Source: an uncultured Myxococcales bacterium (GTDB taxonomy: Bacteria > Myxococcota_A > UBA9042 > CAIXZC01). Taken from it: DNA of 38,322 bases. Positions 4,620-35,013 of the stretch are shown one piece after another. Each line of letters opens with the position of its first letter. Position 1 is the first letter of the stretch. The DNA lies in the NCBI GenBank assembly GCA_964565265.1, contig CAZMEC010000006.1:1-38322 (forward strand), written 5' to 3'. The position numbers were made by a program, and so were the translations under genes. The notes beneath the pieces are model-generated. The model was given only the letters and a program-made list of their open reading frames with translations, had not been told where the DNA came from and searched no databases.

Positions 4620-4627
4620 GGGGGACC

Positions 4628-11892: not shown

Positions 11893-11905
11893 CGAAGGAG
11901 CCCCC

Positions 11906-13970: not shown

Positions 13971-13983
13971 GGTCCCCCGGGGT

Positions 13984-14538: not shown

Positions 14539-14545
14539 ATCCGCG

Positions 14546-18833: not shown

Positions 18834-20162
18834 ATGTTGCTTCGCCGCCTTCCATTTCTGCTGCTGCTTATCTGGCTTCTGGCCTGGTCCCTTCGGCTGG
18901 CCCTCACGGCGGACCTCAACCACGACGATCTCGAACACCTCCACAGTGCCTGGCTGATGGATCAGGGGTTGATGCCCTATCTGGATTTCTTCCAGAAGCA
19001 GGGGCCGCTGCTTTGGGGGGGACTGGGGGGGCTGTTCGCGCTGCCCATGGCCAGCGCCGGGGGCGTGCTGCTGCTGGCCCGGGTGGCCACCTGGTTGATG
19101 CTGCTGGCCTCCTGCCTGGCGCTCTACAGGATCGGGCTGGACGCCACCCACTCGCGCCGCCTGGCCTTCCTGGCTCCGGCGCTGCTGCTGGCCTCCTCCA
19201 AGCTGGTCTACAACCTGGTGGTCCTGCGGCCCGACTCCTTCATGCTGCCTCTGTGGCTCTGGTCCCTGTACTTTGGCCTGTTGGCCTTGAAGGCCCCCCG
19301 GCGGCGCCTGTTGCTGGCCTCCGGGTTTTTGGGGGGGCTGGCAGGGGTGGTGCTGATCAAGGCCCTGCCCTTCGTCCTCCTGTGCGGCCTGGCCCTGATG
19401 GTCGTCCCTGGATCCACCTGGTGCCGCCTGCGCCGCGGTCTCTTCTTCGGGGGCGCGGCCCTGGTGCCCCTGCTGGCCTTCGCCGCCTTTCTGGCCTCCC
19501 GGGGCCTGTTGGCTGGCTTCTGGTTCACCAACCTGGAGTTCAACAGCTTCCTGTATACCTCGGCCACGCCCTTTGACCCGCCGCCCCTCGAGACCCTCAC
19601 AGCCATCCTCACAGGGCTCCTGGAATCCGAGCCCTGGGTGCCCGGGCTGCTGCTGGCAGCCCCCCTGCTGGTCTGGCTTCGAGGTCCCAAACGAACCCAC
19701 CGGGGCGAGTGGCTGCTCCTTGCCCAGGCGGCCCTGGGCCTGTTGCTGCTGATCCCTAACCGGCTTCCGTTCTACACCTATCTTCTACCCAGCCTCCTGG
19801 CCCTGCTGGCCATCCTGCCGTGCTTCCTGCAGGAACTTGGCAAACGCCTGGAGCCCTACCGGCTGACCCTGCAAGGGCCCCGGCTGAACCGCAAACTGGC
19901 CCTGGCCCACCTGCTGGCCCTGGCCCTGGCCCTTCCCGTGCTGCACCTGGCCTACCAGTCAAGCCTCGACTTCCCCAACAACCAGGCCCAACTCCAAGCC
20001 CTCCTTCAGACCCCCCTCTCCCCCGCGCCGCCCCTCCCCGCAAGCCCCTTTCTACCCCAGGCCAGCGGTTACCTCTGGGACAACCAGGACCGCTACCTCC
20101 ACGCCCTCAAAGAACTGGACGCCAAGAACCAACTGCCCCAGTGGTTGAAGGAAAAGTTCTAG
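18834..20162 (+). CDS. GT-C fold (ArnT/PMT-like) membrane glycosyltransferase
   Basis: First loop HDDLEHLHSAW..GLMPYLDFFQKQGPL, LRPD, many TM helices. Confidence 0.65.
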   Translation: MLLRRLPFLLLLIWLLAWSLRLALTADLNHDDLEHLHSAWLMDQGLMPYLDFFQKQGPLLWGGLGGLFALPMASAGGVLLLARVATWLMLLASCLALYRIGLDATHSRRLAFLAPALLLASSKLVYNLVVLRPDSFMLPLWLWSLYFGLLALKAPRRRLLLASGFLGGLAGVVLIKALPFVLLCGLALMVVPGSTWCRLRRGLFFGGAALVPLLAFAAFLASRGLLAGFWFTNLEFNSFLYTSATPFDPPPLETLTAILTGLLESEPWVPGLLLAAPLLVWLRGPKRTHRGEWLLLAQAALGLLLLIPNRLPFYTYLLPSLLALLAILPCFLQELGKRLEPYRLTLQGPRLNRKLALAHLLALALALPVLHLAYQSSLDFPNNQAQLQALLQTPLSPAPPLPASPFLPQASGYLWDNQDRYLHALKELDAKNQLPQWLKEKF

Positions 20163-20574
20163 GAACACCACTCCGCTTACTTCGTGCGCGGCTGGGAAGA
20201 ACAACCCCCTCCCTGGCGGTCGGGGTTCGGACAGGCTGAGTGTAATGTGTAAGGTCCTGACCCCAAGGTCACCAAGGCGGCGGGCCGGGGCGAGGGGTGG
20301 CGCTTCGAAGGCAGCCTCCGCACGCCGCTTACCTCTCAAAAGGGGGGCGTGGAGCGGCGTGCGGCGGCTAGGCGGATAGGGGGGAACAATCCCCCCGGCC
20401 GCCGGCTCTCCGAGGCGCCACCCCCGCCACGGCCCCTGGGAAAAGCGGGGGACAACGGCGGCGGCAAGGGCCCGGTTGCCCCAGTGGTTGAAGGAAAAGT
20501 TGTAGGAACACCACTCCGCTTACTTCGTGCGCGGCTGGGAAGGACAACCCCCTCCCTGGCGGTCGGGGTTCGGA
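20134..20574 (+). repeat. 98-bp direct duplication (20134-20231 and 20477-20574) bracketing a 245-bp insert
   Basis: 96/98 identical; includes the last codons and stop of the upstream gene. Confidence 0.92.
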
Positions 20575-20609
20575 AACGACAACCCCCTCTTTGGCGGTCG
20601 GGGTTCGGA
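20202..20609 (+). repeat. 30-bp REP-like element, three copies (20202-20231, 20545-20574, 20580-20609)
   Basis: CAACCCCCTC(CC/TT)TGGCGGTCGGGGTTCGGA; imperfect hairpin closed by AACCCC/GGGGTT. Confidence 0.85.
20282..20445 (+). repeat. 164-bp structured dispersed repeat, copy 2
   Basis: Same length and orientation as 149-312, with the stems conserved. Confidence 0.9.
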
Positions 20610-20619
20610 TTGGTGGGAT

Positions 20620-20874
20620 TTACTTGAAGACTTGGTCCTTGGAGGATTCCATGAGGGCGGGCATGAAGCTCTTCTTGAGGCTGAGGAGCCGGTCGAACTT
20701 CACCTTCTGGCGTGCGTCGGTGTAGAGGGCAGTGGGCTTCTTGATTTCACCGTCGATGAGCATCTCACCGAAGTCGTAGAACTTGGACTTCACCTTGTCG
20801 GCCGCCTGGGCAGAACCAGCGCCAATCCCAAGACCAAAGGCCAAGAGCACAGCCGCGAATACCAGTCTCTTCAT
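20620..20874 (-). CDS. gltF: GltF/CglF-like small exported protein
   Basis: 84 aa, signal peptide, YDFGEMLIDGEIKKP..ARQKVKFDRLLSLKKSF resembling CglF; RBS GGAGGTG; directly follows the GltE-like gene. Confidence 0.7.
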   Translation of the reverse strand: MKRLVFAAVLLAFGLGIGAGSAQAADKVKSKFYDFGEMLIDGEIKKPTALYTDARQKVKFDRLLSLKKSFMPALMESSKDQVFK

Positions 20875-20947
20875 CTGACACCTCCTGCAACCAACCGCAG
20901 GTAACCTGCGGCAGATATTGCTACAAACCCCCGGGGGTTACAAGTCT

Positions 20948-22915
20948 TCACTTCACCTCGGCCGCAGCGGCGGGCTCGGCCTTCTTCTCTTCGGCCTTGG
21001 GGGCCGCAGGCTCGGCCTTCTTCTCTTCGGCCTTGGGCTCGGCGGCGGGCTCGGCCTTCTTCTCTTCGGCCTTGGGCTCGGCGACGGGCTCGGCCTTCTT
21101 CTCTTCGGCCTTGGGCGCGGCGACGGGCTCGGCCTTCTTCTCTTCGGCCTTGGGCTCGGCGGCAGCCGCAGGGGCTTCGGCGCCTTCGGTCTTCTGGACC
21201 TTTTCAATCTTCAGGGCCGCGCCCGCCTCGTCAATGGCAGGGTTCACGGTCTCAAAGAGCTTCTTGGCCAAGGCCTCGGCGTCTTCCATCATGTCCATCT
21301 GGATGTTCTCGCGGATCTCGCGCATGGCGGGGTCCACCACGGACAACTTCTTGAGCAACTCGTCGGCCTTCTTCACAAAGGCCCGGTCTTCAGCGGTGGC
21401 CTTCTTGTTGGCCTTGATGGCATCCTTCTTCTCCTGCAGCAGGCGCGTGTACTGACCGGCCTTGGACTCCAGGGTCTTGAAGTTGCTTTCCATTTCCTTG
21501 ATGCGGACCGCCTGCTCTTCCATGGCCTTCTTGGCGGCGGCTTCTTCCACCTTCATCTGCTCTTCCATCTTGCGCATCTGCTCTTGCATCTTGCGCGTCT
21601 GCTCAATGGACTTCTGGGCCTCAGTCACATCCAGGCCCAGGCCCGTGGCGACCTTGACATACTCCTCGTAGGCCTCCACGGCCTTGTCGAAGTCCGACAG
21701 CCGAAGCTGGTAGGTGCGCCCGATGCGCAGCAGCAGTTCGACATTCTCGGGGGAGACCGCCACGGCCTTGCGGTAGAACTTGAAGCCCTCTTCGTAGTCC
21801 TGCAGGCCGATGGAGGCGCTGCCGATGCCGATGGTAGCTTCCACATTACCGGGGCGGGCGTTCAGGACATACTCGTACTGAGCCCGGGAGGCCTCGTAGT
21901 TGAGGTATTCCAGGTAGATGGCCGCCAGATTCATGCGGGCCGTCAGGTTGTCCTGGTTCAGCTTCAAGGCCACATTGAAGTGGAACACGGCCTTGGGGGT
22001 GTCGCCCAACTTCAGGTAGGCCAGGCCCAGGTTGTTGTGGGCCTCGGTGGAGGCGGCATCCAGCTTCAGCACCTTGTTCTCAAAGATCCACCGGGCCAGG
22101 CTGGCCTCGCCCCGGGCCAGGTAGATGAGGCCGCGGGTGTTGAGGGCGATGACATTGGTGGGCTGGAGCGTGAGCACATTCTTGATGAACTCCTCGCCGC
22201 GGTTCAGGTATTCCTGGTGCTTGGCCTCATCCTTCTCGCGCTCGGCCTTCAGCAGCCAATAGAGGGCCACGGCGTTGTTGGCCTCCACATTGTCGGTGTC
22301 CTTCATCAGGACCAGATCCAGCAGAGACTTGGCGTCGGCCATCAGCTTGGCGCCTTCGTCCTCGCTGCCCAACTCAAAGGCCTCCTTGGCCTTGGCCAGG
22401 TACACCTTGCCGATGTAGGACTTGGCGGCCCCGGAGTCGGGGTTGGCCGCAAGGGCACTCTGGTAGACCTTGATGGCCTCTTCCCGCTGGCCCGTGCGCT
22501 CGTAGATCATGCCCAGGTTGAAGTAGGCCTCCAGGAAGTTCTTGTCCAGGACGATGGCCTGCTCAAAGGACTGTCTGGCCAGCTCGTAGTCCATGGTGGA
22601 GTAGAGCGCGATGACGCCATCCCGGAACTTCTTCTGGGCCTCAACCTCAACACCAGGCACGAACTCGAGTTCCTGCACCACGACCTCGCGCTTTTGCAGG
22701 GAGCGAGCCAGATCATCTTTCAGCATCTGCTCTTTCTCGTCCTGCTTGCGCTGCTGCTCCAGGCGGGCCATCTCCTCAGGGGAGGGTCCCATGGGCTTCT
22801 TTTCCTGAACCGTGGCGGAGGGCCCGCAGGCCCCGAGGCCCAAGGAGAGGGCCACCACGGAGGCGATTACTGAACTATTTTTGGTGATATTGGCAAACAC
22901 GGCAGTCCCCCTCAC
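20948..22915 (-). CDS. gltE: GltE/AglT-like TPR lipoprotein with C-terminal extension
   Basis: Lipobox LGAC, many TPRs (EAYFNLGMIYE, EAHNNLGLAYL), GTGA overlap with the upstream gene. Confidence 0.7.
   Translation of the reverse strand: MRGTAVFANITKNSSVIASVVALSLGLGACGPSATVQEKKPMGPSPEEMARLEQQRKQDEKEQMLKDDLARSLQKREVVVQELEFVPGVEVEAQKKFRDGVIALYSTMDYELARQSFEQAIVLDKNFLEAYFNLGMIYERTGQREEAIKVYQSALAANPDSGAAKSYIGKVYLAKAKEAFELGSEDEGAKLMADAKSLLDLVLMKDTDNVEANNAVALYWLLKAEREKDEAKHQEYLNRGEEFIKNVLTLQPTNVIALNTRGLIYLARGEASLARWIFENKVLKLDAASTEAHNNLGLAYLKLGDTPKAVFHFNVALKLNQDNLTARMNLAAIYLEYLNYEASRAQYEYVLNARPGNVEATIGIGSASIGLQDYEEGFKFYRKAVAVSPENVELLLRIGRTYQLRLSDFDKAVEAYEEYVKVATGLGLDVTEAQKSIEQTRKMQEQMRKMEEQMKVEEAAAKKAMEEQAVRIKEMESNFKTLESKAGQYTRLLQEKKDAIKANKKATAEDRAFVKKADELLKKLSVVDPAMREIRENIQMDMMEDAEALAKKLFETVNPAIDEAGAALKIEKVQKTEGAEAPAAAAEPKAEEKKAEPVAAPKAEEKKAEPVAEPKAEEKKAEPAAEPKAEEKKAEPAAPKAEEKKAEPAAAAEVK
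20967..21163 (-). repeat. Intragenic 39-bp tandem repeat (PKAEEKKAEPxAx), about 5 copies
   Basis: GGCTCGGCCTTCTTCTCTTCGGCCTTGG recurs five times. Confidence 0.92.
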
Positions 22916-25900
22916 TTGCTTTCCTTGGTTTCGGCCTTGGTCTCGGTGGCCTCGGCGTCGTCGCTTTGTTCCTTGAGCTCGTCGGTCTCGGCGGGCTTGG
23001 CCTCTTCCTTGCCCTTGCTGCCGGCGAAGGAGACGAAGTCAACCTCGGTGTCGCCGCGGCGCAGGCTGCGGATGAAGCTGGTGCTGGTGAGGGTGTCCCG
23101 GATCTTGTCCGCGTGAACCAGGGGCTCTTCGGAGACCGGGAAGTCCTGCGGCGTCACCTTGGCGGCCATGGTGCCAGACTTCCGTGACCATTCGCTGTAC
23201 ACGCCCATCTTGTGGGCCATCTGAATGGCTTCTTTGAAGTTCGCCCGGGCCTTCTCTTCCACGGGCGCGGCGAAGTCTTCGAGGGAGGTCTTGTATTCGT
23301 CAATCTCGTCCTCGCTGAGGCCCTCGGGCAGCGGCACCGCGTACAAGGTCTCGGCGAACTCGTAGTACAGCAGACCAATCTTGTAGTAGGCCGCGGCGGC
23401 CCAGGTCCGGGACTTGTAGTTGATCACCATGGCGAAGGAGGCCTCGGCCTTCTGGTGCCGCTTGGCCTTGCCTTCCAGGGAGTCCGACAGAGCGTAGAGG
23501 TTCCGGGTGTCAAGCTTGAAGGCCACATAGTCGGCGTAGTCGTACTCGGCCTGGTAGAAGGCGGCCTGGGCGGCAAAGACCCTGGTGGGGGCCTTGCGGC
23601 TGGTGTCGCCGGACTTGTCGTAGACCGTCAGGATGGTCTTGCAGTGGGCCAGGACCTTGGTGCGGTTCACATCCCTGTCCTTGGTGAACAGCACCTCGGC
23701 GGCGCGGGCATTGGCCTCCATGACCACATTGCCGTTCTTGGAGAACTTCTTGGCTGTGTCCGTGTACTGGGCGTAGGCCGCATCCAGATCGCCCTTGTCC
23801 TGCTGCAGCCGGCCAATCTTCAAGAGGGCCGAGGACACGCGGGTGTCGTTGGGGAAGCTCTTGTTGAAGGTCTTGAGGGCGTCAATGGCCTTGTCGTGAT
23901 CCTTCAGGGCCTCGTACAGCGTGGCGGCGTTGATGATGGCGCCGGCGACCCGGGGTTCGCCCTTGAACTTGTTCATGGCCATGAAGGCCTCAGCGGCCTT
24001 TTCAAACTGGGTCTGGGACTCGTAGATCTGGCCAATCACATACTGGGCCTCCACGGCCTTGGGGCTCTTGGGGTACTTCTTGATGAGGTCTTCGTAGTTC
24101 TCGATGGCCTTCCGCAGTTCCTTGTTCTTCGCGTAGAGGTAGGCCATGGTGTAGGTCGTGTACGCCATGATCTCTTTGTTCTTCGCGAACTCGCGGCGCA
24201 GCTTGCTCAGGGTCTCCAGGGAGGCCGTGGTCTTGCCCTCGGTCTCCTGGTCCTGGGCCTTGCGGGTCATGGCCGTGGCGACGATGAGTTCCAGGTCGGC
24301 CTTGCTCTTGAAGAGGAAGTTCTTGGTGGCGATGAGGGTCCGGGCCCACTCTTCCACCTTGTCCCAGTTACCCACGCGGTAGTAGCAGTCCATGATCATC
24401 GTCGCGGCGATGGCGGCGAAGCGGTGCTTCTCGTCATAGCGGAAGATGTTCTGGAAGCGCTCGACGGCCTCCTGGAACATGCCGTGCTTGTAGAAGGTCT
24501 CGGCGGCGATGTACATGATGTTGGGGATCATCTCGCCCTTGGCCGGGTACTTCTTGACGAAGTCCGGGTCCTCGCGGGCCTTCAGCAGCAACTGGGTGTA
24601 CTTGTCGGCGGCGCTGATGAAGTCCTGCTCCAGGGGGTGCAGGTCGGTGCGCTGGATCTCCATGGCCTCCTCGCGCATATCCTCGGCCTTCACCTGCTTG
24701 ACCTGGACCTCGCCCTTGTCGGCGCGGCTTCGCAGGCCTTCGACCACCATCAACTGCTCGTTGCAGTAGATGACGCCCAGGGCCGCGTCCTCCAGGAACT
24801 TGCCCTTGAGATCCTTCTGGATCACGAGCTTGTACTGTTCGGCTGCCTTCTTGAAATCCTTGAGGTTGAAGTAAAGGATTTCTGCGTACCAGAAGCTGAC
24901 CTCGTAGGAGCGGTTGCTGTTGGGGAAGCGCTCCAGGTAGATGGCGTAGTACTTGGCAGCGTTGACATACAGAGGCCCGGCCACCTCGGTCTTGCCGGCC
25001 TTCTCCTGCTTGTCACCCTCCACATGGTAGTAGTTGGCGACGAAGAAGATGGCCTCTTCCGTCATGTTGGCGGCGGTGTCCAGGATCTCCGGGTCGTTCT
25101 TGTTGGCGTTGGCCCAGTTCGACCCTTCGATGAAGAAGGCCATGATCTCGTTGACCACGCGCTCGGTCTCGTCCCAGTTGGGGGACTTCTGGGAGATGTC
25201 CAGGATGACCTGGTAGTACTCCGTGACGCGGCGGGACAGGGGGAAGGTCTCGATGAGGTGGTAGTACACCGCCAAGGCTTCTTCCTGCTTGTCCTGGCCC
25301 ACATAGAGTTCGGCCATCTTGTGCAGCTTCACATAGGCGCCGTCCTTGCCGATCTCCTTGGTGAAGTACTCGAGGGCCAGCTTCCAGCCGTCGTCCACTT
25401 CGGTGTAGACCAGCACCAGGTCGTTCAGAGCCTGGTCACGGAAGGACATCTTGGCCTGCTCGGAGGACTCGGACTTGATGGCCTCGATGACCTTGTGGAA
25501 GGTGTCCACGGACTTCTCGAACTCGGACAGGTTGTAGTACACCCACGCCAACTTGTAGAGGGCGTAGTTGTACATGCTGGCCGTGGGATAGTTGTTGATG
25601 ATGGTCTCGTACTTCGTCTTGGCGTAGTACAGGGACCGGTTCTCGAAGTAGTACTCGGCCTGATGCAGCAGGGACTGGGGAATGAGCCGACTGCTGGGAT
25701 AGCCCTGGATCAGGTTGTCGAAGTGCTTGATGCCCTCGCGCTGAAGCTGGATATCCTTGTTGGTGCGACCCACCTCGAGGGCGCCGCGGCCCAGGAAGTA
25801 CAACACTTCGTCAATGCGCTGGTAGTCGGGGTATTCGCGGAGGATCTTCCGGTAGTACTCCAGGGAGGTGCCGTAGTCGCCCACGGGCTCGCGGGGGCGC

Positions 25901-26367
25901 TCGGTCAGGAGGCCGGCGTCGAACTTGTCCAGGGCGTCCAGCCAGGTCTTGCGGGCGTTCAGGTACTGGAAGTGGTTCTCTTCCCAGTAGGATTCGGCCA
26001 GCCGGAAGTACACATCGGCCTTGCGATCGTACCGCGGATTGGTGGCCAGCAGGTCCTCCATCTGGCGGATGTTCTGCTTGCGGAGGTCAGACTTGCGGGC
26101 CTGCATCTCCTCGAACTTCTTGTCAATGGCCGCCACTTCGAAGTCCGACAGGGTCATGGCTGCCTTGACGCAGATGCCCTTCACGGAGTCGCAGATCTGA
26201 CCCTGGGGACAGTCCCCATCGGCCTCGCACTTGATGTCCTTGGATTCGACATCCTTCGTCTTGATCTTGGTGATCTCACGCTTGGCGCGGGACCGCTCGC
26301 CCATTCCCTGGGCAAAGGCCGGCGCCGAAAGCAGAACCATCAACAACGCAAGCAGGGCATTCCTCAT
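22912..26367 (-). CDS. gltD: GltD/AgmU-like large TPR periplasmic protein
   Basis: Signal peptide from ATG 26367 (ATGA overlap with the upstream stop); ADVYFRLAESYWEE, YALYKLAWVYYN, PLPEGLSEDEIDEYK..PVEEKA, YSEWS. Confidence 0.75.
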   Translation of the reverse strand: MRNALLALLMVLLSAPAFAQGMGERSRAKREITKIKTKDVESKDIKCEADGDCPQGQICDSVKGICVKAAMTLSDFEVAAIDKKFEEMQARKSDLRKQNIRQMEDLLATNPRYDRKADVYFRLAESYWEENHFQYLNARKTWLDALDKFDAGLLTERPREPVGDYGTSLEYYRKILREYPDYQRIDEVLYFLGRGALEVGRTNKDIQLQREGIKHFDNLIQGYPSSRLIPQSLLHQAEYYFENRSLYYAKTKYETIINNYPTASMYNYALYKLAWVYYNLSEFEKSVDTFHKVIEAIKSESSEQAKMSFRDQALNDLVLVYTEVDDGWKLALEYFTKEIGKDGAYVKLHKMAELYVGQDKQEEALAVYYHLIETFPLSRRVTEYYQVILDISQKSPNWDETERVVNEIMAFFIEGSNWANANKNDPEILDTAANMTEEAIFFVANYYHVEGDKQEKAGKTEVAGPLYVNAAKYYAIYLERFPNSNRSYEVSFWYAEILYFNLKDFKKAAEQYKLVIQKDLKGKFLEDAALGVIYCNEQLMVVEGLRSRADKGEVQVKQVKAEDMREEAMEIQRTDLHPLEQDFISAADKYTQLLLKAREDPDFVKKYPAKGEMIPNIMYIAAETFYKHGMFQEAVERFQNIFRYDEKHRFAAIAATMIMDCYYRVGNWDKVEEWARTLIATKNFLFKSKADLELIVATAMTRKAQDQETEGKTTASLETLSKLRREFAKNKEIMAYTTYTMAYLYAKNKELRKAIENYEDLIKKYPKSPKAVEAQYVIGQIYESQTQFEKAAEAFMAMNKFKGEPRVAGAIINAATLYEALKDHDKAIDALKTFNKSFPNDTRVSSALLKIGRLQQDKGDLDAAYAQYTDTAKKFSKNGNVVMEANARAAEVLFTKDRDVNRTKVLAHCKTILTVYDKSGDTSRKAPTRVFAAQAAFYQAEYDYADYVAFKLDTRNLYALSDSLEGKAKRHQKAEASFAMVINYKSRTWAAAAYYKIGLLYYEFAETLYAVPLPEGLSEDEIDEYKTSLEDFAAPVEEKARANFKEAIQMAHKMGVYSEWSRKSGTMAAKVTPQDFPVSEEPLVHADKIRDTLTSTSFIRSLRRGDTEVDFVSFAGSKGKEEAKPAETDELKEQSDDAEATETKAETKESK

Positions 26368-28430
26368 TTGCATTCCTCTTTCACGAAACTGCGGTAACCC
26401 CAGATTTCGTCTTCCCAGTAGTCGCCCTCGAAGGGCCATTCCAGAGAGTCACTACCCACGATGGTGGTGCTGCCACCGACATTCTCTTCGCCCGCCACGA
26501 CCTCTTCGATGGCGTCAATCACCTTGCCGGAGATCTTGGCCTTGCGCAGGGCGTTGAAGTGCTTGACCTTGAACAGCCTGAAGATGGGGTCGGAGCCCAC
26601 GAACTTGATGAGGTCCGCCTCGCCGCGGCCGGCTTCCTGCATGCGCACCAGGCCATTGACGGCGTCGGTGAGCTGCTGCTCGGCCAGCAGTTCCTTGGTG
26701 GACTCTTCGATCTTCTCCATCTCGACCTGGTTCAGGTCCAGTTCGATTTCGGTGACCTTCACCTGGTAGTCACGCAGATCCTTCTGGATGTTGCGGAAGG
26801 CCATCTGGATCTTGATGCCGATCTCGTTGATGCGGCTGATCTTCTGGTTCTCCAACATGGAGATGGTCTCTTCGCCCCAGGAGCCCAGCTTGCCACGCAC
26901 GCCGCTGAGGGACTTCAGTTCCTTCTCCACCTGGGTGATGGTCCGGTACAGCCGGTAGATATCGGCGTTCGCCATCACGGGGTACATGAGTTCCATGGGC
27001 AGGTTGTAGGCGCCTCCCTGGCCGTTGCCGATGCGCACGAAGGCCATGTAGTACTCGGCCTGGGTCCGCATGTTGCGGATGAACTGGTCCAGGGGGATGG
27101 CCTTGGTGGAGATGTGCCGCTTGAACATCTCCAGGGTGAGGCGGGCGCGCTCGTACTGGCAGATGTTCATGTAGATGGTGGACTCAAGGATCCAGAGCTC
27201 GGGGTAGAAGTAATGATCGAAGAAGGGGCTGTGGAGGGCGTGGAAGGTACCCACGGCGCGGCTGTAGTCGCCCTTCATGAAATAGGTCCAGCCCATTTCG
27301 TAGAACGCGTCGGGCAGCCGGGGGCTGTTCTTGGGGATCTTGCGGTAGTAGTAAATGGCGCCGTCGTAGTTGCCGGTCTCGTAGGCGATTCGGGCCAGGG
27401 CCAGATAGGCCATGTCCGCCACGCGGGCCTCGGACTTGTTGCGATTCTGGCTTTCCACCGCCTCCTGGAAGGACTGCACGGCGGACTTGTACATCTGGTT
27501 GGCCACCTGCACCAGGCCGGTGAGGTAGCGGGCCTTGGCGTGAAGCTGGCTGTCCGAGGAGACCTCGCCGAAGTACTTCAGGGCCATGCTGTAGTTGCTG
27601 CCCTCGTAGAAGAACTCGCCCAGGAAGTAGTTGTACTTGTCCTGGAAGCCACGGCTGAAGTTGCCCACGAAGAACTGGGTGAGCTGCTCCAGGTCGGGGG
27701 GGCTGTAGGCCACGCGCTTGCGCATCTCGACGAGGTTGTCGAAGGCGGCCTGGAAGAAGGTCTTGTCGGGGCCCTGGAGGACAATCTCCAGCAGCATGCT
27801 GGCAGCGCTTTCGTACAGGCCAGCCTTCACCAGAGCAAGGGCCATGCCGTAACGGGCGTTGTAGTACTCGTCCGTGGTGGGGCCGTAATTGTTCTTCTGA
27901 ATGAAAGCCTGGAACAGGCGGATGGCTTCCACATACTCGCCCTTCTCAGCCAGTTCCATACCGGTCTTGAGCTGACCCTTGGCATAGGCCTTCTTCTGGG
28001 CGTCCATGGCGCGCTCTTGTTCCTGCTTGAGGCGCAGGGCCTCGGACTTGGCCCGCTCGGCTTCGGCGCGGATCTCCTCCGGGGTCTTCTCCACCACGGC
28101 CTGCTGCATGCCGGGCATGGGGGCCGCGGCCACGGGGGCCACGGGGGCCTGCACCGCGCCGTACATCTGGGGCGTGGCCAGCATGTGGCGGATGACCTTC
28201 TCAGGCACGCCCGCGTTCTTCAGTTCAAGGATCTCGTTGATGTTCAGATTGAAGATCGTCCGATCCTTGTCAATGGCCTGGATTATCTCGTCCTCGCTGA
28301 TGCCGAGCTTCGCCAAGGTGATCACTTCACTCTTGCTGATGGCGAAGGCGACTGAGGGTAGCGCAAGCACCCCCAGCAGCACCGCAAGGGTCAGGACCGT
28401 GTTCAGTCTGGATCTGAGGTTCATGGTCAT
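26364..28430 (-). CDS. gltC: GltC/NfsC-like TPR protein
   Basis: AYLALARIAYE, AFYEMGWTYF, ALHSPFFDHYFYPE, C-terminal WPFEGDYWEDEIWGY..C. Confidence 0.75.
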   Translation of the reverse strand: MTMNLRSRLNTVLTLAVLLGVLALPSVAFAISKSEVITLAKLGISEDEIIQAIDKDRTIFNLNINEILELKNAGVPEKVIRHMLATPQMYGAVQAPVAPVAAAPMPGMQQAVVEKTPEEIRAEAERAKSEALRLKQEQERAMDAQKKAYAKGQLKTGMELAEKGEYVEAIRLFQAFIQKNNYGPTTDEYYNARYGMALALVKAGLYESAASMLLEIVLQGPDKTFFQAAFDNLVEMRKRVAYSPPDLEQLTQFFVGNFSRGFQDKYNYFLGEFFYEGSNYSMALKYFGEVSSDSQLHAKARYLTGLVQVANQMYKSAVQSFQEAVESQNRNKSEARVADMAYLALARIAYETGNYDGAIYYYRKIPKNSPRLPDAFYEMGWTYFMKGDYSRAVGTFHALHSPFFDHYFYPELWILESTIYMNICQYERARLTLEMFKRHISTKAIPLDQFIRNMRTQAEYYMAFVRIGNGQGGAYNLPMELMYPVMANADIYRLYRTITQVEKELKSLSGVRGKLGSWGEETISMLENQKISRINEIGIKIQMAFRNIQKDLRDYQVKVTEIELDLNQVEMEKIEESTKELLAEQQLTDAVNGLVRMQEAGRGEADLIKFVGSDPIFRLFKVKHFNALRKAKISGKVIDAIEEVVAGEENVGGSTTIVGSDSLEWPFEGDYWEDEIWGYRSFVKEECK

Positions 28431-28479
28431 GTCCTTACCCCCCCTATTCCTTTCAGGGAATCACTATGCCTGGTCCTGC

Positions 28480-29187
28480 TCAGTTGACGAAGAACGAGAA
28501 GCCAAAGGTGACTTCTGCGGGGGTGGAGACACCGCCCAACCGTTCCATGGCCGCGAAGAAGAAGTGGCGGTAATCCACGGCGATGGCTGCCCAGTCGGTG
28601 ACGAACACGCGCCCACCCAGGCCCACGCTGCCGGCCACATCGGTGCGGCTTTGCTTGTCCGCGCCCTTGTTGTCGGACACCTCGGTGCCCAGGGCCCCGA
28701 CGCCGAAGGACAGGTGCATGTCAAAGTGGAAGAGCTTCCAGGCGAAGAGGCCCATCTTGCCGTGAATGGGACTCCAGAGGCCCTGGATGCCGGCGTTCCA
28801 CTTCAGCACCTGGGGGAACTCCGTCTGGACGCGGAAGCCGTCGTCGCTGCGGAGGAACCCGGCGAGGTCGGACTCGCTGCCCAGGATGTAGCTGCCGGTG
28901 AGCTCAACGCCGAGGTCCTCGGAGAAGTAGTAGCCGACCTTGGCCCCAAGGGGGTAGTAGGTGTAGAAGTCGTCATTCGGGATGACGCCAAAATACGGGG
29001 TGACATTGATCCGGCCTTCCTTCTGGAAGAGGCGCTTCTGGATCACCTTGACGCTGCGGGTCTCGCCCCAGTATTTGTCCAGATAGGTGTCCAGCTTGGA
29101 CTCCTCCGCCGCGAGGGCGGGGGTAGCCGCCGAAACCAGCAGCACAGCAACCAGAGTCCCGACGATGCTTCTAAAAGATCCCTTCAT
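28480..29187 (-). CDS. GltA/GltB-like outer-membrane beta-barrel protein
   Basis: Signal peptide; VIQKRLFQKEGR..PNDDFY..GYYFSEDLGVE; WSPIHGK..FHFD; amphipathic strands ending GFSFFVN. Confidence 0.78.
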   Translation of the reverse strand: MKGSFRSIVGTLVAVLLVSAATPALAAEESKLDTYLDKYWGETRSVKVIQKRLFQKEGRINVTPYFGVIPNDDFYTYYPLGAKVGYYFSEDLGVELTGSYILGSESDLAGFLRSDDGFRVQTEFPQVLKWNAGIQGLWSPIHGKMGLFAWKLFHFDMHLSFGVGALGTEVSDNKGADKQSRTDVAGSVGLGGRVFVTDWAAIAVDYRHFFFAAMERLGGVSTPAEVTFGFSFFVN

Positions 29188-29250
29188 GTTTCTTCTCCGA
29201 AATGCGGTTCTAAGTCCTTGAAATAGGAACTATTAATCTACCTAATAAAC

Positions 29251-31317
29251 CTATGGATGGAAGCAGTTCTCCGTGTCCTCGCAGCTCCAGTCGTCGGGCC
29301 AGTCCAGGCCACCCGGGTTGCTGTAGGCCATCTGATCGGCGGCGTCCGCAGCGGTGTGGGTGGTGCACCCGGACTTGTTCACATAGTAGACGGCCCAGAA
29401 GTACCAGATGGAGGGATCCTTGTCGTCGGGCTTCCAGCCCTGCTCCTCGTAGCACTTGCCCCCGATGGTGCTGTCCGCGTACTCGGCAGGCATGACGGGG
29501 GGCTTGGGGGGCACGCAGCCACCGCTGCAACACACGGTGGGTATGGAGGCGCCAAGCTGCTTGGTAATGGTGTCTCCAGCGGAGGAACTGTTGGTGTTCT
29601 TGGGCTGCAGCTTGAGGTAGGCCTTCACAGGCTTGCACTCGCCCTGGCCCGTGCCGTTGTCGGTCCAGGCGTCGAAGAACTTGCAGGCCCCGGCGGCGGT
29701 GTCGCAGAACCAGGTGCGGGTGGCGCAGGTGCCCATGGTCTCGGCCTCGTCGCAGTCCTCGTTGGTGGTGCAGTTCTTGTGAATGGCGGGGCGCCCATCC
29801 AGGTAGGTGCTGGTGTCGATGTTGAAGGGATAGGGCTTCTCGCTGCCATCGGCGATGAACATGGGCTCGGAGACAGACAGCTTGCCTTCCACGGCGTAGG
29901 CCCAGCCCTGGGGCATGTCATTGTTGTTCTTGATGGCGTCCAGTTTGACCACCATTTCCCAGTAGCCACCAAAGGTGTAGCGCACCCGTTTGGCGGCATC
30001 CTTGAGGTGGTTGGCCAGTTCGGTGGTGGTGAAGTCCTGGGCGTTCAGGAACACATAGTTGCCACCGGTCTCGCAGGCGGTCTGCATCTGGCGAGAGTCC
30101 CGGTCCGGGTAACCCTTGGCCGCGAACTGCACGAAGTGCACCGGGATGCGGTCCTTGTATTCGTCCGCCCGGATGCGGGTCATGGCCTGCTCGTAGGTGG
30201 TCTGGTAGGAGAGGCAGGACTTGCGGCAGCGGTTCAACTCGGGGCAATCGGAGCAGGTATCGGGGCCATCGGAGATGACCAGGATGTGCTTGTACTTGAG
30301 GTTCTTGGCGGCAGCGTGGTTGGCCATGTAATCATAGGCCATGTCCACGGCGCTCCACAGGGGGGTGCGGCCCAGGCTGTCGTTGCGGATGCCCTCCAGC
30401 GGGGAGAAACTGCCCGCATCACCCAGAACCAGGGTCTTGTTGGAGGAGAAGCAGGCCTCTTTCTTCTCTTCGAAGGAAGCATTGGCCTTGTCGGGGTGAT
30501 TGCAGACGATGTCAATCTTGTTCTCATTGAAGGAGAACACCACGACCTTGTCGCCGGCGTTGAGCGTCTCGATGACCTCCTTGACGGCGGCCAGGCGGGT
30601 GCCGCCGGGGTCCGAGCCGTTCTGCAGGAAGGTGGCGCCCTCGGGAATGGAGGCGGTGGCATCGCCCATGGTGTCTTCGTAGTAGGGCGGGTAGTAGTGG
30701 ACCAGGCCACTGTTGCTGCCGCTCATGTCCACCAGGATGGCCACACCCACAGAGGTCCCGCGGGCAGGCGTGATGGGCTTGAAGCCAATCTTGGTGAGGG
30801 CCACGCTGTCGCTCTTGATCTGGCTGTAGCAGTAGGGGACGGAGACACCATCCTCAATGCAGTAGCCCTTGATGCGGTCGCCACAGGTCTGGTCAGCCTC
30901 ACAGTCGCCCGAGTTCACGCACTTGCGATCCTGCAGCAGGACCTGCTCGATGCAGTCGAAGCTGAGGCGGAAGTTGCTGGTATTGATCTGGTCTTCGTCA
31001 ACAAAGCGACGGTCCAGATTGTCCCCGGGCCGGATGGAGAGGTCCAGGTCAGCCACGACCTCGTCCTTCACCTCCGAGCCGTAGAACAGGGATTTCAAGA
31101 TGAGGCCATCAACATCAGCGTTGGCGCCGTCACAGACGGGCACATAGGTCTCGCTGCTGCCGCTGCCCTCAATCTTCATGGGCACAGCGCCCAGCACGAA
31201 GATTTCTCTGAAGGAGCGCTCACTTGTGGAAAGCAGGGCGTTGGAATCGCACCCCACCGACAGTCCGGCCCCAAACAGCAGGCCAGCCGCCCCCAGCGCT
31301 AGAATTCTCTTCTTCAT
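29251..31317 (-). CDS. Cys-rich VWA-domain lipoprotein (CglB-like adhesin candidate)
   Basis: Lipobox LSVGC; MIDAS DMSGS (30715-30729), TPLWSAV, ILVISDGPDTC; Cys-rich regions on both sides. Confidence 0.75.
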   Translation of the reverse strand: MKKRILALGAAGLLFGAGLSVGCDSNALLSTSERSFREIFVLGAVPMKIEGSGSSETYVPVCDGANADVDGLILKSLFYGSEVKDEVVADLDLSIRPGDNLDRRFVDEDQINTSNFRLSFDCIEQVLLQDRKCVNSGDCEADQTCGDRIKGYCIEDGVSVPYCYSQIKSDSVALTKIGFKPITPARGTSVGVAILVDMSGSNSGLVHYYPPYYEDTMGDATASIPEGATFLQNGSDPGGTRLAAVKEVIETLNAGDKVVVFSFNENKIDIVCNHPDKANASFEEKKEACFSSNKTLVLGDAGSFSPLEGIRNDSLGRTPLWSAVDMAYDYMANHAAAKNLKYKHILVISDGPDTCSDCPELNRCRKSCLSYQTTYEQAMTRIRADEYKDRIPVHFVQFAAKGYPDRDSRQMQTACETGGNYVFLNAQDFTTTELANHLKDAAKRVRYTFGGYWEMVVKLDAIKNNNDMPQGWAYAVEGKLSVSEPMFIADGSEKPYPFNIDTSTYLDGRPAIHKNCTTNEDCDEAETMGTCATRTWFCDTAAGACKFFDAWTDNGTGQGECKPVKAYLKLQPKNTNSSSAGDTITKQLGASIPTVCCSGGCVPPKPPVMPAEYADSTIGGKCYEEQGWKPDDKDPSIWYFWAVYYVNKSGCTTHTAADAADQMAYSNPGGLDWPDDWSCEDTENCFHP

Positions 31318-31397
31318 TTCCTCTCCACCTCACCCGCAGTTGGATCCACAAAGCAGCGTTCACCGCAGGCCCCGGTCGGGGTCAGGCGGCTCCCGAA

Positions 31398-31439
31398 GTT
31401 ATAACAGGGTTATTCTTGCCGGGGACCGGTCAAAGTCAA
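31398..31439 (-). promoter_or_regulatory. Putative promoter region for the VWA/glt cluster
   Basis: Minus strand TTGACT (31439-34), TTGACC (31433-28) and extended -10-like TGTTATAAC (31406-31398); exact -35/-10 pairing is ambiguous. Confidence 0.35.
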
Positions 31440-31467
31440 TCGGTTTTTTGGGTTTGGGTCCGGGGGG

Positions 31468-32367
31468 CTACGCGGGTGAGCTCAGGCGGCCTGAAAGCGC
31501 GTCGAGAGAGGCCAGGGCAAGCTGCTGAAAAGGCATATTTTCCGGGCCATGACCGATGGGCAGACCGGCCACCATCGGGATTCCTCTTTTTTCTGCCTGG
31601 GCAAGCAGCAGGGTCTTCAGGTCCGCGGACAGGGGCACCCCCAGATCCCCCAGGAGGAGCCCCGCGATCCCCTGGGCCTCCCTATGGTGGAGGAGCTGCC
31701 AGAAGAGGCGGTCCAGCCTGTAGGGCGCCTCGTTGGTGTCTTCCAGGGCAAGCAGCACGCCCTCCAGGGGGGGGGCCAGGGGGGTACCCAGGATCGACAG
31801 CAGCACGGACAGGTTCAGGATCAGCAGCGGGCCCTGGGCCTGCCCCGGAGCCAGGGGCTGCAGGCCGGCCAGGGTGGGCACGGGGGGCCTTTGGCCCAAC
31901 AGGAGGTCGAGGAAGGCCTGTTGGGAGGCAGAGTCGAGCTGGGTCAGGGTGCAGACATTGGGGCCATGCCAGCACTCCCAGCCGCAGGCCCCGGCGAGGT
32001 GGGGAAAGAGGGCGCTCACATCGGAGAAGCCCAGGAGGCGGGAGGCGGGGGCACAGAATCCCCCATCCACCAGGGCCCGGGCGGCACCGTAGCCACCTCG
32101 GATGGCCATTACCAGTCCCTCCCCGCGCCCCTCCCTGGCCCAGCAGGCGGCGTCAACCAGACAGCGGGCCCGGTCAGCGTCGCTACCCGCCAGGTACTCC
32201 CGGGCGGTGCTGGGCATGAACACCTGCACCTCCAGGCCCGCTGCCTTCAGGAAGGCCACGCCCTGGTCCAGGCGCTCTTGGGGGACCCGGCCACTGAAGG
32301 CGGCGCAGGCAACGCGCCGGACGGGGCTGGGGGCGGGCGGGGCCTTGGGTTTTTTGTGGGAATCCAT
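31468..32367 (-). CDS. ldcA: LD-carboxypeptidase (peptidase S66)
   Basis: IRGGYGA, GFSD (Ser), HGP, LEDTNEAPYRLDR (Glu), IGHG (His); start placed at ATG 32367 to avoid overlap with the divergent gene. Confidence 0.87.
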   Translation of the reverse strand: MDSHKKPKAPPAPSPVRRVACAAFSGRVPQERLDQGVAFLKAAGLEVQVFMPSTAREYLAGSDADRARCLVDAACWAREGRGEGLVMAIRGGYGAARALVDGGFCAPASRLLGFSDVSALFPHLAGACGWECWHGPNVCTLTQLDSASQQAFLDLLLGQRPPVPTLAGLQPLAPGQAQGPLLILNLSVLLSILGTPLAPPLEGVLLALEDTNEAPYRLDRLFWQLLHHREAQGIAGLLLGDLGVPLSADLKTLLLAQAEKRGIPMVAGLPIGHGPENMPFQQLALASLDALSGRLSSPA

Positions 32368-32416: not shown

Positions 32417-33763
32417 ATGGCGGTTTCGATTGTCCAGAAAAGCACGGGACAGGCAAGGGGCAAATCCAAGGTCGCCCTGGTGCTCTCCGGCGGGGCCGTC
32501 TCCGGTGGGGCCTTCAAGGCCGGCGGTTTGCTGGCCCTGGACCATCTGCTGAGTTCCTGTCGGGTGACGGATTTCGATATCTATGTGGGCATCAGCGCGG
32601 GCTCCATGCTGGCCGCACCCCTGGCCGGTGGCATCCGCCCCCAGGAACTGGTCACGGGGTTCGCTGGGGGGCAATCGGACCTGCCCAGCTTCGGAGCCCT
32701 GGACTTCTACAGGCCCAACTTCCGAGAGACCCTGTCCAAGAGCGTGAAGGCGGTCAAGGATCTGGCGACCCTCTGGCCCGAAGTGGGGCGTAGCTCGCTG
32801 CGCGTCATGGGGCGCCAGAAGGGGCAGGTGAAGCGGTCCCTGTCGAACCTGATGAAGCACCCTGGCACGGGCGCCGTGTCCGAACTGCTGGCCCCCTTCC
32901 TGGCCGAGCTTCGGGCCTCCTCGGACCTGCCCTACCCTTCGTCCTACATACCCTCGGGGCTGTTCTCCAATACCAGCATCGAGAAGTGGATCAGGAAGAC
33001 CTTTGACTCCCGGCGCATCCCCAACAACTTCCGGCTGCTGAAGCTGGAGCGGGGGGTCTCGCTGTATGTGGAGGCTGCGGACCTGGACACCAGCGAGGAG
33101 GTGGTCTTCGGCCCCGACGAGGACCAATCCGTCAGCATCTCCGAGGCCATCATGGCGTCCACGGCGCTGCCGGGGTTCTATCGCCCGGTGAAGATCCGGG
33201 ACCGCTACTTCGTTGATGGGAGTGTCCGCCACACGGCGCCCATGGAGATTGCCCGCCGCAAGGGGGCGGACCTCATCATTATATATAACCCCTTCCGGCC
33301 CTTCCGGCAGGTGCCCACCCGTAAACTGGTCCCCAACTTTGAGTCCATTGGCGAGATGGGCCTCATCACGGCCCTCAACCAGTCCATCCGGACCATGATT
33401 CACAGCCGCCTCCATCTGGGCATCGAGGAGCTGCGCAAGGACCCGGGCTTCAAGGGTGATGTGATTCTGTTCGAGCCCTCCGAGGACGATGCGGACTACT
33501 TCGCCATGAACCCCCTGGCCTTCTGGCAGCGCGCGGAGGCCGCCAAGAAGGGGTACCGGTCGGCTCGCCAGGACATCGAGCGGAACTTCCCAGGACTGCG
33601 GCGCGTGCTGAATCGCCATGGGCTGGACTGCAAGCTCTCAACCCTCCAGCAGGTGGACGATCTCCTGGTGCAATGCGGCAGCGACGAGGGCGAGATCATT
33701 CGCACCCTGGGCCGGGAGTACCCCAAGGACAAGGGCAACCTGCGCCTGGTCCACAGCGCGTAG
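32417..33763 (+). CDS. Patatin-like phospholipase
   Basis: ALVLSGGAVSGG, GISAG nucleophile elbow, ASTALPG, FVDGS. Confidence 0.9.
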   Translation: MAVSIVQKSTGQARGKSKVALVLSGGAVSGGAFKAGGLLALDHLLSSCRVTDFDIYVGISAGSMLAAPLAGGIRPQELVTGFAGGQSDLPSFGALDFYRPNFRETLSKSVKAVKDLATLWPEVGRSSLRVMGRQKGQVKRSLSNLMKHPGTGAVSELLAPFLAELRASSDLPYPSSYIPSGLFSNTSIEKWIRKTFDSRRIPNNFRLLKLERGVSLYVEAADLDTSEEVVFGPDEDQSVSISEAIMASTALPGFYRPVKIRDRYFVDGSVRHTAPMEIARRKGADLIIIYNPFRPFRQVPTRKLVPNFESIGEMGLITALNQSIRTMIHSRLHLGIEELRKDPGFKGDVILFEPSEDDADYFAMNPLAFWQRAEAAKKGYRSARQDIERNFPGLRRVLNRHGLDCKLSTLQQVDDLLVQCGSDEGEIIRTLGREYPKDKGNLRLVHSA

Positions 33764-33775
33764 ACGACCTGTCCG

Positions 33776-33805
33776 TCCGAACCCCGACCGCCAGGGAGGG
33801 GGTTG
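33776..33805 (-). repeat. 30-bp REP-like element, fourth copy (inverted)
   Basis: Exact reverse complement of 20202-20231, 12 nt after the patatin stop. Confidence 0.9.
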
Positions 33806-33890
33806 CCTGCTGTTCCTTCAGGTCCTGCTTGCATCTCTTCCCACAACGAACGATATTTCAGCCCTTGGAGGTTTTTTGGGAGGCCCGCCC

Positions 33891-34886
33891 GTGACCCGAT
33901 CCATGCCTGGCTTGTTTTTGTTGCTTGCCGTTCTGGTGGGCTGCGCCGACGAGGATCCCGTCCTGGTTTCGCTCCCGGCTGATCCGGGCGTGCTTTTCCG
34001 AGGCGAGGACGGCCCGGTGCTGGCCCAGATTGGTGATTGGAAGATCACCACCAGGGACCTGGAGACCGTCCACCCCATCAGGGAGGGCGCCTCCGCCAAG
34101 GAGAGCCTCCAACACCTTGTTGATGGCGTTCTGGTGGTGAAGGCGGGGGTGGAGCAGGGGCACGAAGGTCGCTTTCCCGTACTGCTGGAGTGGCGCCGCG
34201 CCCTGGCCCGGGAATGGGCCCTCCAGAACTTTGGCGAAGGGTTCTCAGCAGAGTCGGTGCCGGACTCCCTGTGGCAGGAGATCTACAGCAGCGTCCGGGC
34301 CCGCTTCGACCACAAGGAGACCTTCTTCGTGCTGGATGTGCAGTACCTGTGCTGCATGGGGCACCCCGATGGCTGCGACGCCAAGGATGTGGCCCGCTGC
34401 CAGGATCAGAACCTCCCCATGATGAGCAACATTCAAGAGTTCCTGGCCCAGTCCGGGGTGAAGACCAAGGAGCAACTGGACCGCAAACTGGAAGAATATC
34501 GGGCCACCTACGGCGGCGAGTTCGGCGTGGCGGACTACGCCTTCCAGTACGACTTCAGCAAGGGGCCCGACCAGCAGGGCCGCTACGACCGCGTCAACGA
34601 GAATGTCGCCCGGGGGGCCAAGGCAACCAAGGTGGGCGAGTTTTCGCCGGTGGTGGCCTCCAGAAACGGCCTGCACATTCTGCTGCTGACCCAGTATCTC
34701 CCCGAGACCCACCGGAAGTTCGGAGACCCGGGCGTGAAGGAAGAGCTGATCCAATCCTTCCTGCCCATCCTGCGCGAAAAGGAAGTGGCCGACGCCTTCG
34801 CCATCCTGGTCAAGCGCCAGCAGATCAAGCTGCACCCCGAGAACCTGGGCCAGGTGGACTGGACCAAGGCCACGGGCCTGAAGTAG
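33891..34886 (+). CDS. Parvulin/PrsA/SurA-like foldase lipoprotein
   Basis: GGAGG then GTG 33891 (alternative ATG 33903); lipobox LVGC; VLAQIGDWKIT; KVGEFSPVVASRNGLHIL. Confidence 0.65.
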   Translation: MTRSMPGLFLLLAVLVGCADEDPVLVSLPADPGVLFRGEDGPVLAQIGDWKITTRDLETVHPIREGASAKESLQHLVDGVLVVKAGVEQGHEGRFPVLLEWRRALAREWALQNFGEGFSAESVPDSLWQEIYSSVRARFDHKETFFVLDVQYLCCMGHPDGCDAKDVARCQDQNLPMMSNIQEFLAQSGVKTKEQLDRKLEEYRATYGGEFGVADYAFQYDFSKGPDQQGRYDRVNENVARGAKATKVGEFSPVVASRNGLHILLLTQYLPETHRKFGDPGVKEELIQSFLPILREKEVADAFAILVKRQQIKLHPENLGQVDWTKATGLK

Positions 34887-35013
34887 CCTCCCCCGAGACG
34901 GCAAGTCAACTACCTCTGCGGGCCGAGAGCTTCGTTGGGGTCTGCCTGCCCCCCAGCGCTTGACTTTCCCCCTACCCTGGGGCCCACTGACGCTGTGCGT
35001 TTGGAGGTGCCCC

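Follow-up and report, generated by a model that had tools for sequence, protein, structure and literature searches.

A conserved Glt/Nfs-like operon headed by a predicted VWA/MIDAS lipoprotein in uncultured Myxococcota

The closest described systems to the locus reported here are the Agl-Glt gliding machinery of Myxococcus xanthus and its paralogue, Nfs. In the Agl-Glt model, outer-membrane barrels and GltC form a platform that holds the adhesin CglB (PMC11761067). GltD serves as a periplasmic pillar whose C-terminal part is bound by GltE, GltF links GltC with GltG's TonB-like domain, and GltG and GltJ connect to the AglRQS channel in this AlphaFold-based model (PMC11761067). CglB itself is described as a lipoprotein that combines a von Willebrand factor A (VWA) domain and a motif termed MIDAS (metal ion-dependent adhesion site) with an added beta domain and many cysteines (PMC9946355). 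Here we describe a six-gene operon headed by a gene for a predicted VWA lipoprotein, found on a 38,322-nt contig of an uncultured Myxococcales bacterium (GenBank assembly GCA_964565265.1, contig CAZMEC010000006.1). This whole contig (C6 of the assembly) is called the window throughout.

Several further Glt-like gene sets have been catalogued. Luciano et al. (2011) distinguish Glt (G1, G2, M1), Nfs (G3) and the uncharacterised sets G4, G5 and M2 in M. xanthus, and Bdellovibrio carries four Glt-like sets (PMC3169522). G4 comprises five genes, MXAN_1919-1923, including a G-like gene, and G5 (MXAN_1327-1331) encodes D, C, a barrel, an FHA/G-like protein and F; disruption of G4 or G5 leaves motility unaffected (PMC3169522). 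None of the sets as listed there includes a VWA gene, and both G4 and G5 have a G-type gene (PMC3169522). Two other VWA proteins are relevant to the comparison: CglD is described as a beta-integrin-like VWA lipoprotein of 1130 amino acids (aa) with a COMP-like Ca-binding half (10.1101/2023.10.19.562135), and Bdellovibrio Bd0875 is described as a MIDAS adhesin (PMC11003981).

The window belongs to a metagenome-assembled genome (MAG) of 3.44 Mb (389 contigs, 66% G+C, 86.55% complete, 4.6% contamination). Six open reading frames (ORFs), all on the minus strand, occupy positions 31317-20620. The head gene (29251-31317) encodes a Cys-rich predicted VWA/MIDAS lipoprotein of 688 aa, and is followed by genes for a GltA/GltB/NfsA/NfsB-type outer-membrane beta-barrel (28480-29187; 235 aa), a GltC/NfsC-like TPR protein (26364-28430; 688 aa), a GltD/NfsD-like large TPR protein (22912-26367; 1151 aa from its ATGA start), a GltE/NfsE-like TPR lipoprotein (20948-22915; 655 aa, lipobox LGLGA-C) and a GltF/CglF-like small secreted protein (20620-20874; 84 aa). 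Read directly, the C/D junction (...TGCAAATGAGG) is an ATGA where the genes share 4 bp (10 bp should D begin at the upstream ATG, 26373), and the D/E junction (...AAGTGAGG) is a GTGA, again with a 4-bp overlap. Both overlaps are taken as a sign that the genes are translationally coupled. The remaining intergenic gaps are 63, 49 and 73 nt. All six products carry a signal peptide or lipobox, as read directly from the sequence; the barrel, C and D proteins have signal peptides.

Profile searches place these genes in the Glt/Nfs family. The barrel passes the OMP_myx_plus model (TIGR04565) with 101.3 bits against a cut-off of 60 and is the only match to that model in the window. The C protein matches GltC (NF033756; E 2.9e-53, 181.6 bits, cut-off 450) over profile positions 70-573 of 622, the E protein matches GltE (NF033758; E 1.1e-25, 90.5 bits, cut-off 225), and the F protein matches CglF (NF033764; E 2.9e-9, 36.8 bits, cut-off 90). 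The C protein of a cluster in another genome of the phylum (L077, genome G003), which passes the GltC equivalog cut-off with 479.9-482.8 bits, served as positive control for that cut-off. No dedicated model matches the D protein, on which only TPR, YbgF and BamD-like models score; both D and C score on the YbgF and BamD/YfiO TPR models. Its assignment comes from its TPR repeats, from a tree discussed below, and from its paralogy to the large TPR genes that lie between GltC-like and GltE-like genes on two other contigs of the same genome (C80 and C62). The E protein ends in tandem K/E/P/A-rich repeats (AEPKAEEKK-like, within 20948-21200), and the canonical GltE model stops before them. Because their scores lie under the equivalog cut-offs, C, E and F are not orthologues of the gliding proteins. 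Judged by these matches, the cluster is assigned to Glt/Nfs-type envelope machinery at the gene-cluster level and not to Agl-Glt gliding machinery proper, in the sense of orthologues of M. xanthus Glt.

A first-pass annotation of the window, made without database searches, had proposed much of this layout. Its six co-oriented genes with 4-bp overlaps at C/D and D/E, its Glt/Nfs-family homologues in an Nfs-like order, its single barrel and its VWA lipoprotein at the head all survive the profile, junction and structural evidence given here. The unit also stops after F, as proposed: the 18 flanking ORFs are unrelated genes by Pfam, among them an LD-carboxypeptidase, a patatin-like lipase, a PMT_2 glycosyltransferase and a sulfatase-family protein. 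The claim that a TonB-like gltG and motor genes are absent from the window is borne out by a profile search of the genome, in which neither MotA/ExbB models nor the AgmX/PglI tail (GltG/J-type) matched anything in the window.

The identity of the head protein rests on residues and fold. No Pfam or NCBIfam model matches it, including at E<=10, and it misses E 0.01 with the Pfam VWA model. A database search returned only 36 relatives, all metagenomic and unnamed or 'hypothetical', none with a precomputed Pfam domain. In a 36-sequence alignment (A1), the MIDAS residues D197-x-S199-x-S201 and D350 are invariant, and T318 is the consensus residue yet is less than 90% conserved. The lipobox LSVG-C23 follows a signal peptide, with C23 at least 90% conserved, and roughly two dozen cysteines are invariant or nearly so in the same alignment (28 Cys in the 688 aa of the window protein). 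An AF2 model built from A1 (pLDDT 85.3, pTM 0.84) has an N-terminal beta domain, a VWA domain with the MIDAS motif and a C-terminal beta-rich domain. The best Foldseek matches in the PDB are VWA pilus-tip adhesins (PitA, SpaC, RrgA), integrin I domains and TRAP, with 262 among the best 500 matches at E<=0.001, and the ESM Atlas neighbours are VWA clusters. Also matched is 1JLM (rank 43, TM by target 0.68), the integrin I domain used by Islam et al. in their alignment with CglB (PMC9946355). The VWA reading holds despite the silent sequence profiles because the invariant MIDAS residues, the AF2 fold and the Foldseek matches agree, and the head protein is thus identified as a VWA-fold protein with a MIDAS motif.

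The arrangement recurs widely. A scan of one genome per GTDB species with the head-protein alignment returned 59 loci, all in Myxococcota MAGs, and the gene order of each was read by tblastn of the six window proteins. The VWA gene is followed by colinear barrel-C-D-E-F in 40 of the 59, of which 22 are complete and 18 are ended by the end of the DNA. The partial loci reach E (10), D (1), C (5) or the barrel (2), and 17 of them end at most 511 nt past the last match; in the other, L017, the 1687 nt that follow E contain no F match. Gene orders are colinear in all related loci, F is conserved after E in 22 of the 59, and nine of the 40 have two tandem barrels. The first-pass annotation had proposed a variant machine in a lineage outside the model myxobacteria; the arrangement is not an oddity of one lineage. 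Its related question, whether the arrangement is already a documented standard, divides: the order is the rule in the clade (40/59 loci), but full-text literature searches, which returned mostly listings and abstracts, found no paper that describes a Glt-like operon beginning with a VWA gene. The arrangement is apparently a conserved, undescribed variant of the Glt/Nfs family.

The related loci also bear on the missing energy-coupling genes. No GltG-, TolQ-, TolR-, ExbB- or ExbD-like tblastn match occurs at any of the 59 loci. Seventeen loci have about 0.8-2 kb of DNA past F, which holds unrelated, variable ORFs; for that distance, the suggestion that better-assembled relatives have a G or motor gene behind F was rejected. 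A large same-strand ORF with a common N-terminal sequence lies just after F in L021, L028, L031, L035 and L042. In the remaining 19 loci the VWA gene stands alone: five are cut off at most 644 nt downstream, and 14 have at least 2.9 kb of downstream DNA and are solo paralogues (L012, L013, L018, L022, L025, L034, L036, L041, L044, L045, L053, L059, L062, L063). These solo paralogues have no Glt-like neighbours, no conserved neighbour was found in the 11 of 14 that were examined, and a genome may hold up to three copies of the VWA gene.

The window is not the organism's only Agl-Glt-like locus. Searching the genome by tblastn with the window proteins revealed further C-D-E sets on contigs C80, C62 and C2. 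The C80 cluster (L064:1759-11978) runs C-D-E-F-GltG-like-DegP, and no other C protein in the genome scores as high on GltC (289.1 bits; CglF 38.8, GltG 164.4); its GltG-like protein combines an FHA domain with an AgmX/PglI tail, and no barrel or adhesin gene adjoins the cluster. An unlinked tandem pair of OMP_myx_plus barrels adjoins ftsY on C254 (L090:878-2031), and these two and the barrel of the window are the only OMP_myx_plus barrels in the genome. Taken together, the C80 cluster and the C254 pair seem to come closest, in this organism, to the canonical Glt set. The C62 cluster (L065:3335-15583) encodes two lipoproteins, one with a CarboxypepD_reg domain and one with HEAT repeats, a 237-aa barrel-like protein without a profile hit, C-D-E-F and, cut by the end of the contig, the N-terminus of a TolQ-like protein. 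That TolQ-like piece is 68-77% identical to the gene at the same position in other genomes, and the C62 layout, with a TonB-tail protein further on, also occurs in G003, G146, G176 and G013. C2 encodes a D-like protein of about 700 aa (699-706).

With at least three paralogous Glt-like clusters in the genome, the first-pass reading of a variant Agl-Glt machine needs amending: the operon is not the Agl-Glt machine of its organism. Gliding, prey attachment and surface transport, the functions put forward there, stay candidates. That annotation had also advised looking for gltG-type and motor-type genes elsewhere in the genome, and they are there, on other contigs, with other clusters or alone: besides those on C80 and C62, proteins with an AgmX/PglI tail (GltG/J-type) are encoded on C157 and C242, and TolQ-TolR-like and ExbB-ExbD-like pairs on C278 and C196. 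All five searched relatives that hold the cluster likewise have GltG-like matches elsewhere in the genome (5-8 each).

The paralogous clusters fall into three classes, for which type I, II and III are labels coined in this analysis. Type I (C62, L078, L080, L083, L085) runs barrel-C-D-E, then a TolQ-like gene and a gene for a TonB-tail protein. Type II (C80, L077, L081, L082, L084 and others) runs (barrel-)C-D-E-F-GltG and has the top GltC, E and G scores. Type III is best matched by the window proteins, and the window cluster carries the VWA head gene. All three coexist in G013 and G176, and each of five other genomes of the phylum has 2-6 D matches. In G013, the GltC and GltE scores are 341.8 and 154 bits for type II vs 212.1 and 110.1 bits for type III, and the type II cluster carries a GltG-like gene of 413 bits.

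A tree of D proteins separates these classes. The tree, made from 50 proteins over 1178 columns by an IQ-TREE quick search under LG+G4, has SH-aLRT as its sole support measure and is midpoint-rooted for display; it excludes the C2 protein (706 aa) and D hits with fewer than 300 aligned residues, and several type I and type II rows sit on long branches. The 33 rows with a VWA head gene group in a single clade (SH-aLRT 100), separate from the clade with the canonical-GltC cluster (L077); these 33 were fetched via the VWA gene, and VWA-less members of the class could enter only via five reference genomes. Together with L073, L074 and L075 they make up 36 type III rows in one clade (SH-aLRT 100), apart from types I and II. 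No cultured-myxobacterium name occurs among 33 homologues of the C80 D protein, and in a 401-genome sample of the phylum only one GltC passes the cut-off, in G003, which stands alone in its order and class.

These last three type III clusters, which were reached through D and belong to other families, also have a gene ahead of their barrels and bear on the age of the head gene. The L073 head protein (421 aa) scores 31.7 bits on Pfam VWA and aligns to A1 by hhalign at 97.6% (E 3.6e-12). The L074 head protein (13287-14879), a 530-aa lipoprotein, does so at 98.3% (E 2.6e-14) over 400 columns from the lipobox onward. The L075 head protein (1541-3358; 605 aa) reaches only 5%, which is not significant, and has a Pfam VWA match of E 0.0064. 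L074 and L075 are two-barrel sister clusters whose head proteins have a degenerate MIDAS (ENSGS or ENSGG vs DxSxS; ENSGS in L074), and their residues suggest that they may no longer bind metal. In type III sister clusters (f23), F is followed by a GltJ-like gene with Zn-ribbon, GYF and TonB_C domains (157.8 bits in G013, and 150 bits). In the ancestral type III layout, a VWA lipoprotein gene was likely followed by two barrels, C-D-E-F and a GltJ-like gene, with a TonB-like partner in the design because the f23 clusters retain that gene. The window lineage would then likely have lost one barrel and the TonB-like gene in cis, and the single barrel would be the derived state because the sister clusters and nine of the 40 related loci have two.

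These observations lead us to favour, at a probability of roughly 0.55, the reading that the six genes specify one half of a Glt/Nfs-type trans-envelope machine, the half in the outer membrane and periplasm, together with a MIDAS adhesin of its own, and that the machine is energised in trans. The outer half is proposed because the genes match the extracytoplasmic subset of the Agl-Glt model and add an adhesin-like lipoprotein, and the energy would come in trans because all six products have signal peptides, with no part for the inner membrane or the cytoplasm among them. In the outer membrane, the GltC-like protein and the single GltA/B-type barrel would make up a platform that holds and exposes the Cys-rich VWA/MIDAS lipoprotein as an adhesin. 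The GltD-like protein would be a periplasmic pillar with the GltE-like protein bound to it, and the GltF-like protein would bridge C to a TonB-like partner. The energy source is likely one of the GltG/J-type TonB-like proteins working with a TolQR/ExbBD/Agl-type channel, their genes lying in other parts of the genome. Nfs likewise borrows the AglRQS motor, which is encoded elsewhere in Myxococcus. We infer the protein contacts, the surface exposure and the energisation in trans by analogy with Agl-Glt, and the same analogy suggests a role in surface adhesion or gliding-type traction, or in attachment to prey or particles.

A number of points weigh against this reading. At 86.6% completeness and in 389 contigs, the MAG does not allow a motor or TonB-like partner to be assigned to the cluster. 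The C, E and F proteins all score under the NCBIfam equivalog cut-offs, the D tree contains no named Myxococcus or Bdellovibrio sequences, and the pairwise contacts among the six proteins are offered as a proposal only. An Asp (D24) directly follows the lipid-modified Cys23 of the head protein (31249-31246 region), with GCD as the family consensus. This bears on the protein's location because, under E. coli rules, Asp after the lipoprotein Cys leads to inner-membrane retention. Lipoprotein sorting rules in Myxococcota differ from those of E. coli. A complex prediction for the VWA lipoprotein (residues 24-688) and the barrel (27-235), run without controls, scored 0.00 against a mark of 0.32, which speaks neither for nor against a contact. 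The single barrel is a further difficulty, given that GltA and GltB of M. xanthus are described as mutually dependent (PMC11761067).

A further point against it is that the head protein has no detectable sequence relation to CglB. The CglB model (NF033757) has no match in the genome and none on the head proteins at E<=10, and hhalign of A1 against L070 and L071, two of the phylum's highest-scoring CglB-like proteins (97.5 and 97 bits on NF033757), gives 3.1% and 1.6%; as the CglB cut-off is reached in 0 of 401 genomes of the phylum, this comparison was made without a true CglB as positive control. The head gene was accordingly rejected as a CglB orthologue, which qualifies the comparison with CglB in the first-pass annotation. 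By these comparisons, the likeness to CglB is one of architecture, not of family.

Some of the same evidence invites other explanations. A TonB-like or motor gene in cis occurs in 0 of the 40 related clusters, which would also fit a scaffold with no motor at all, in which the barrel and the TPR proteins act as tethers between the outer membrane and the periplasm or peptidoglycan in the manner of Tol-Pal/YbgF/BamD-type proteins, and the VWA protein, facing the periplasm, is a factor for binding or assembly that depends on metal and is no surface adhesin. The scores of D and C on the YbgF and BamD/YfiO TPR models and the Asp next to the lipobox Cys point in this direction. We nevertheless consider such a scaffold rather improbable: a GltJ-like TonB_C protein directly follows F in the sister clusters, surface adhesins top the structural matches to the head protein, an F-like protein is retained although F bridges C to a TonB-like domain in the Agl-Glt model (PMC11761067), and the family is described as descending from motor-coupled systems (PMC3169522).

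The operon might also be an Nfs-like conveyor that carries coat material or polysaccharide around the cell during sporulation or a cyst-type differentiation, with the VWA protein binding that polymer instead of an external surface. Its gene order is that of nfsA-F. The nfsA-H locus tags appear in supplementary file 1 of the Glt survey, which also makes Nfs a precedent for a Glt paralogue in a non-motility role (PMC3169522). This explanation is still less probable, in our view: the window cluster falls outside the canonical-GltC clade of the D tree; Nfs is described as the closest homologue of Glt (PMC3169522); the unit ends after F, without G; and Pfam finds no sporulation or coat-polymer genes nearby among the 18 flanking ORFs. 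Alternatively, the operon might not be independent at all, but the adhesin and outer-membrane platform of the GltG-bearing C80 cluster, the two being parts of one split Agl-Glt apparatus. Their gene contents do complement each other, with no adjoining barrel or adhesin gene at C80 and no G in the window. Both loci, however, carry full C-D-E-F sets that lie in different deep clades, the C254 barrel pair could serve C80, and the same three classes coexist in G013 and G176, all of which makes a split apparatus highly improbable.

A broader and speculative proposal is one that we think unlikely although not far-fetched. The VWA-headed clusters would represent a third functional class of Agl/Glt-type surface machine in which the adhesin is hard-wired into the operon. 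The cis layout (VWA, two barrels, C-D-E-F, GltJ-like) would be ancestral and the unlinked CglB of Myxococcus later, either independent or diverged. In small-genome uncultured Myxococcota, the machine would be used to attach to particles or prey under motor drive and not for classical gliding.

It is a live question in the gliding field how the adhesin comes to be loaded on the Glt outer-membrane platform and exposed there, and the adhesin gene of Myxococcus is unlinked and was found by genetics. A different VWA/MIDAS family fixed to barrel-C-D-E-F in 40 loci offers an independent natural test of the rule that a VWA adhesin goes with a Glt platform. The compact six-gene, one-barrel unit is suited to co-expression and structure work, and it offers a possible role for one of the paralogous Glt-like clusters. 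More generally, Glt-like clusters in MAGs should be sorted into paralogue classes before gliding is read as present or absent.

A sigma-70-like promoter match (TTGACT-16-AAGAAT; 31412-31439, minus strand) lies about 95 nt upstream of the head gene; it is the sole promoter-like site in 19900-31700, where shuffled sequences average 2.0, and is a consensus match only. Intergenic REP-like repeats (20134-20609) close the unit between F and a convergent glycosyltransferase gene. They include two copies of a 98-nt direct repeat (20134-20231 and 20477-20574) built from a 38-nt unit (3 copies). The repeat hotspot of the first-pass annotation is thus real, but it is not specific to the locus: the 38-nt unit is REP-like and dispersed genome-wide, with 640 blastn-short hit lines. 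The REP-like repeat, about 30-60 nt long and G+C-rich, also occurs at 33776-33805 and on many contigs, often in tandem at contig ends, and probably contributes to the fragmentation of the assembly.

Elsewhere in the window, a DUF4388-domain protein (4616-6721) is encoded immediately upstream of a PhoH-like ATPase, and there are genes for a GGDEF protein (12915-13970) and a DsrE-family protein (11879-12484); these genes have no link with the operon. A mevalonate pathway is suggested by GHMP-kinase and HMG-CoA reductase genes at 360-2431. Four large ORFs with good coding signal have no Pfam match at E<=1e-5 (9884-11527 on the minus strand; 2571-4619, 33618-34886 and 34960-38322 on the plus strand), the last of which exceeds 1121 aa and extends past the contig end.

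Set beside the known systems, the operon resembles Agl-Glt with CglB in its parts and Nfs in its order. With M. xanthus Agl-Glt it shares a GltA/B-type barrel, C-, D-, E- and F-like proteins and a Cys-rich VWA/MIDAS lipoprotein as the likely partner of the platform. It differs in being one operon, whereas M. xanthus has gltKBAC, gltD-J and an unlinked cglB; in having one barrel and no GltG/GltJ or AglRQS in cis; in its VWA protein of 688 aa, which belongs to its own 36-member family; in C, E and F proteins under the equivalog cut-offs; and in a D clade separate from the canonical-GltC cluster. Nfs (nfsA-H) shares the single-locus order barrel(s)-C-D-E-F, but begins with two barrels, extends to NfsG and NfsH, and is listed without a VWA gene, whereas the window unit has a VWA head and one barrel and ends after F. 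Defined by two barrels followed by C-D-E-F-G-H, Nfs does not include the window cluster.

G4 and G5 are alike in being extra Glt-like paralogue sets, which show that such clusters can specialise; compared with the window by listed gene content, they differ in that both have a G-type gene and neither has a VWA gene listed. CglD and Bd0875, as described in the sources cited above, are also surface or outer-membrane MIDAS-bearing VWA proteins, which predatory delta-type bacteria employ in traction or in contact with prey, and neither is reported there at the head of a Glt-like operon. Finally, the type I and type II clusters of this genome and of the phylum have the C-D-E(-F) core in common with the window.

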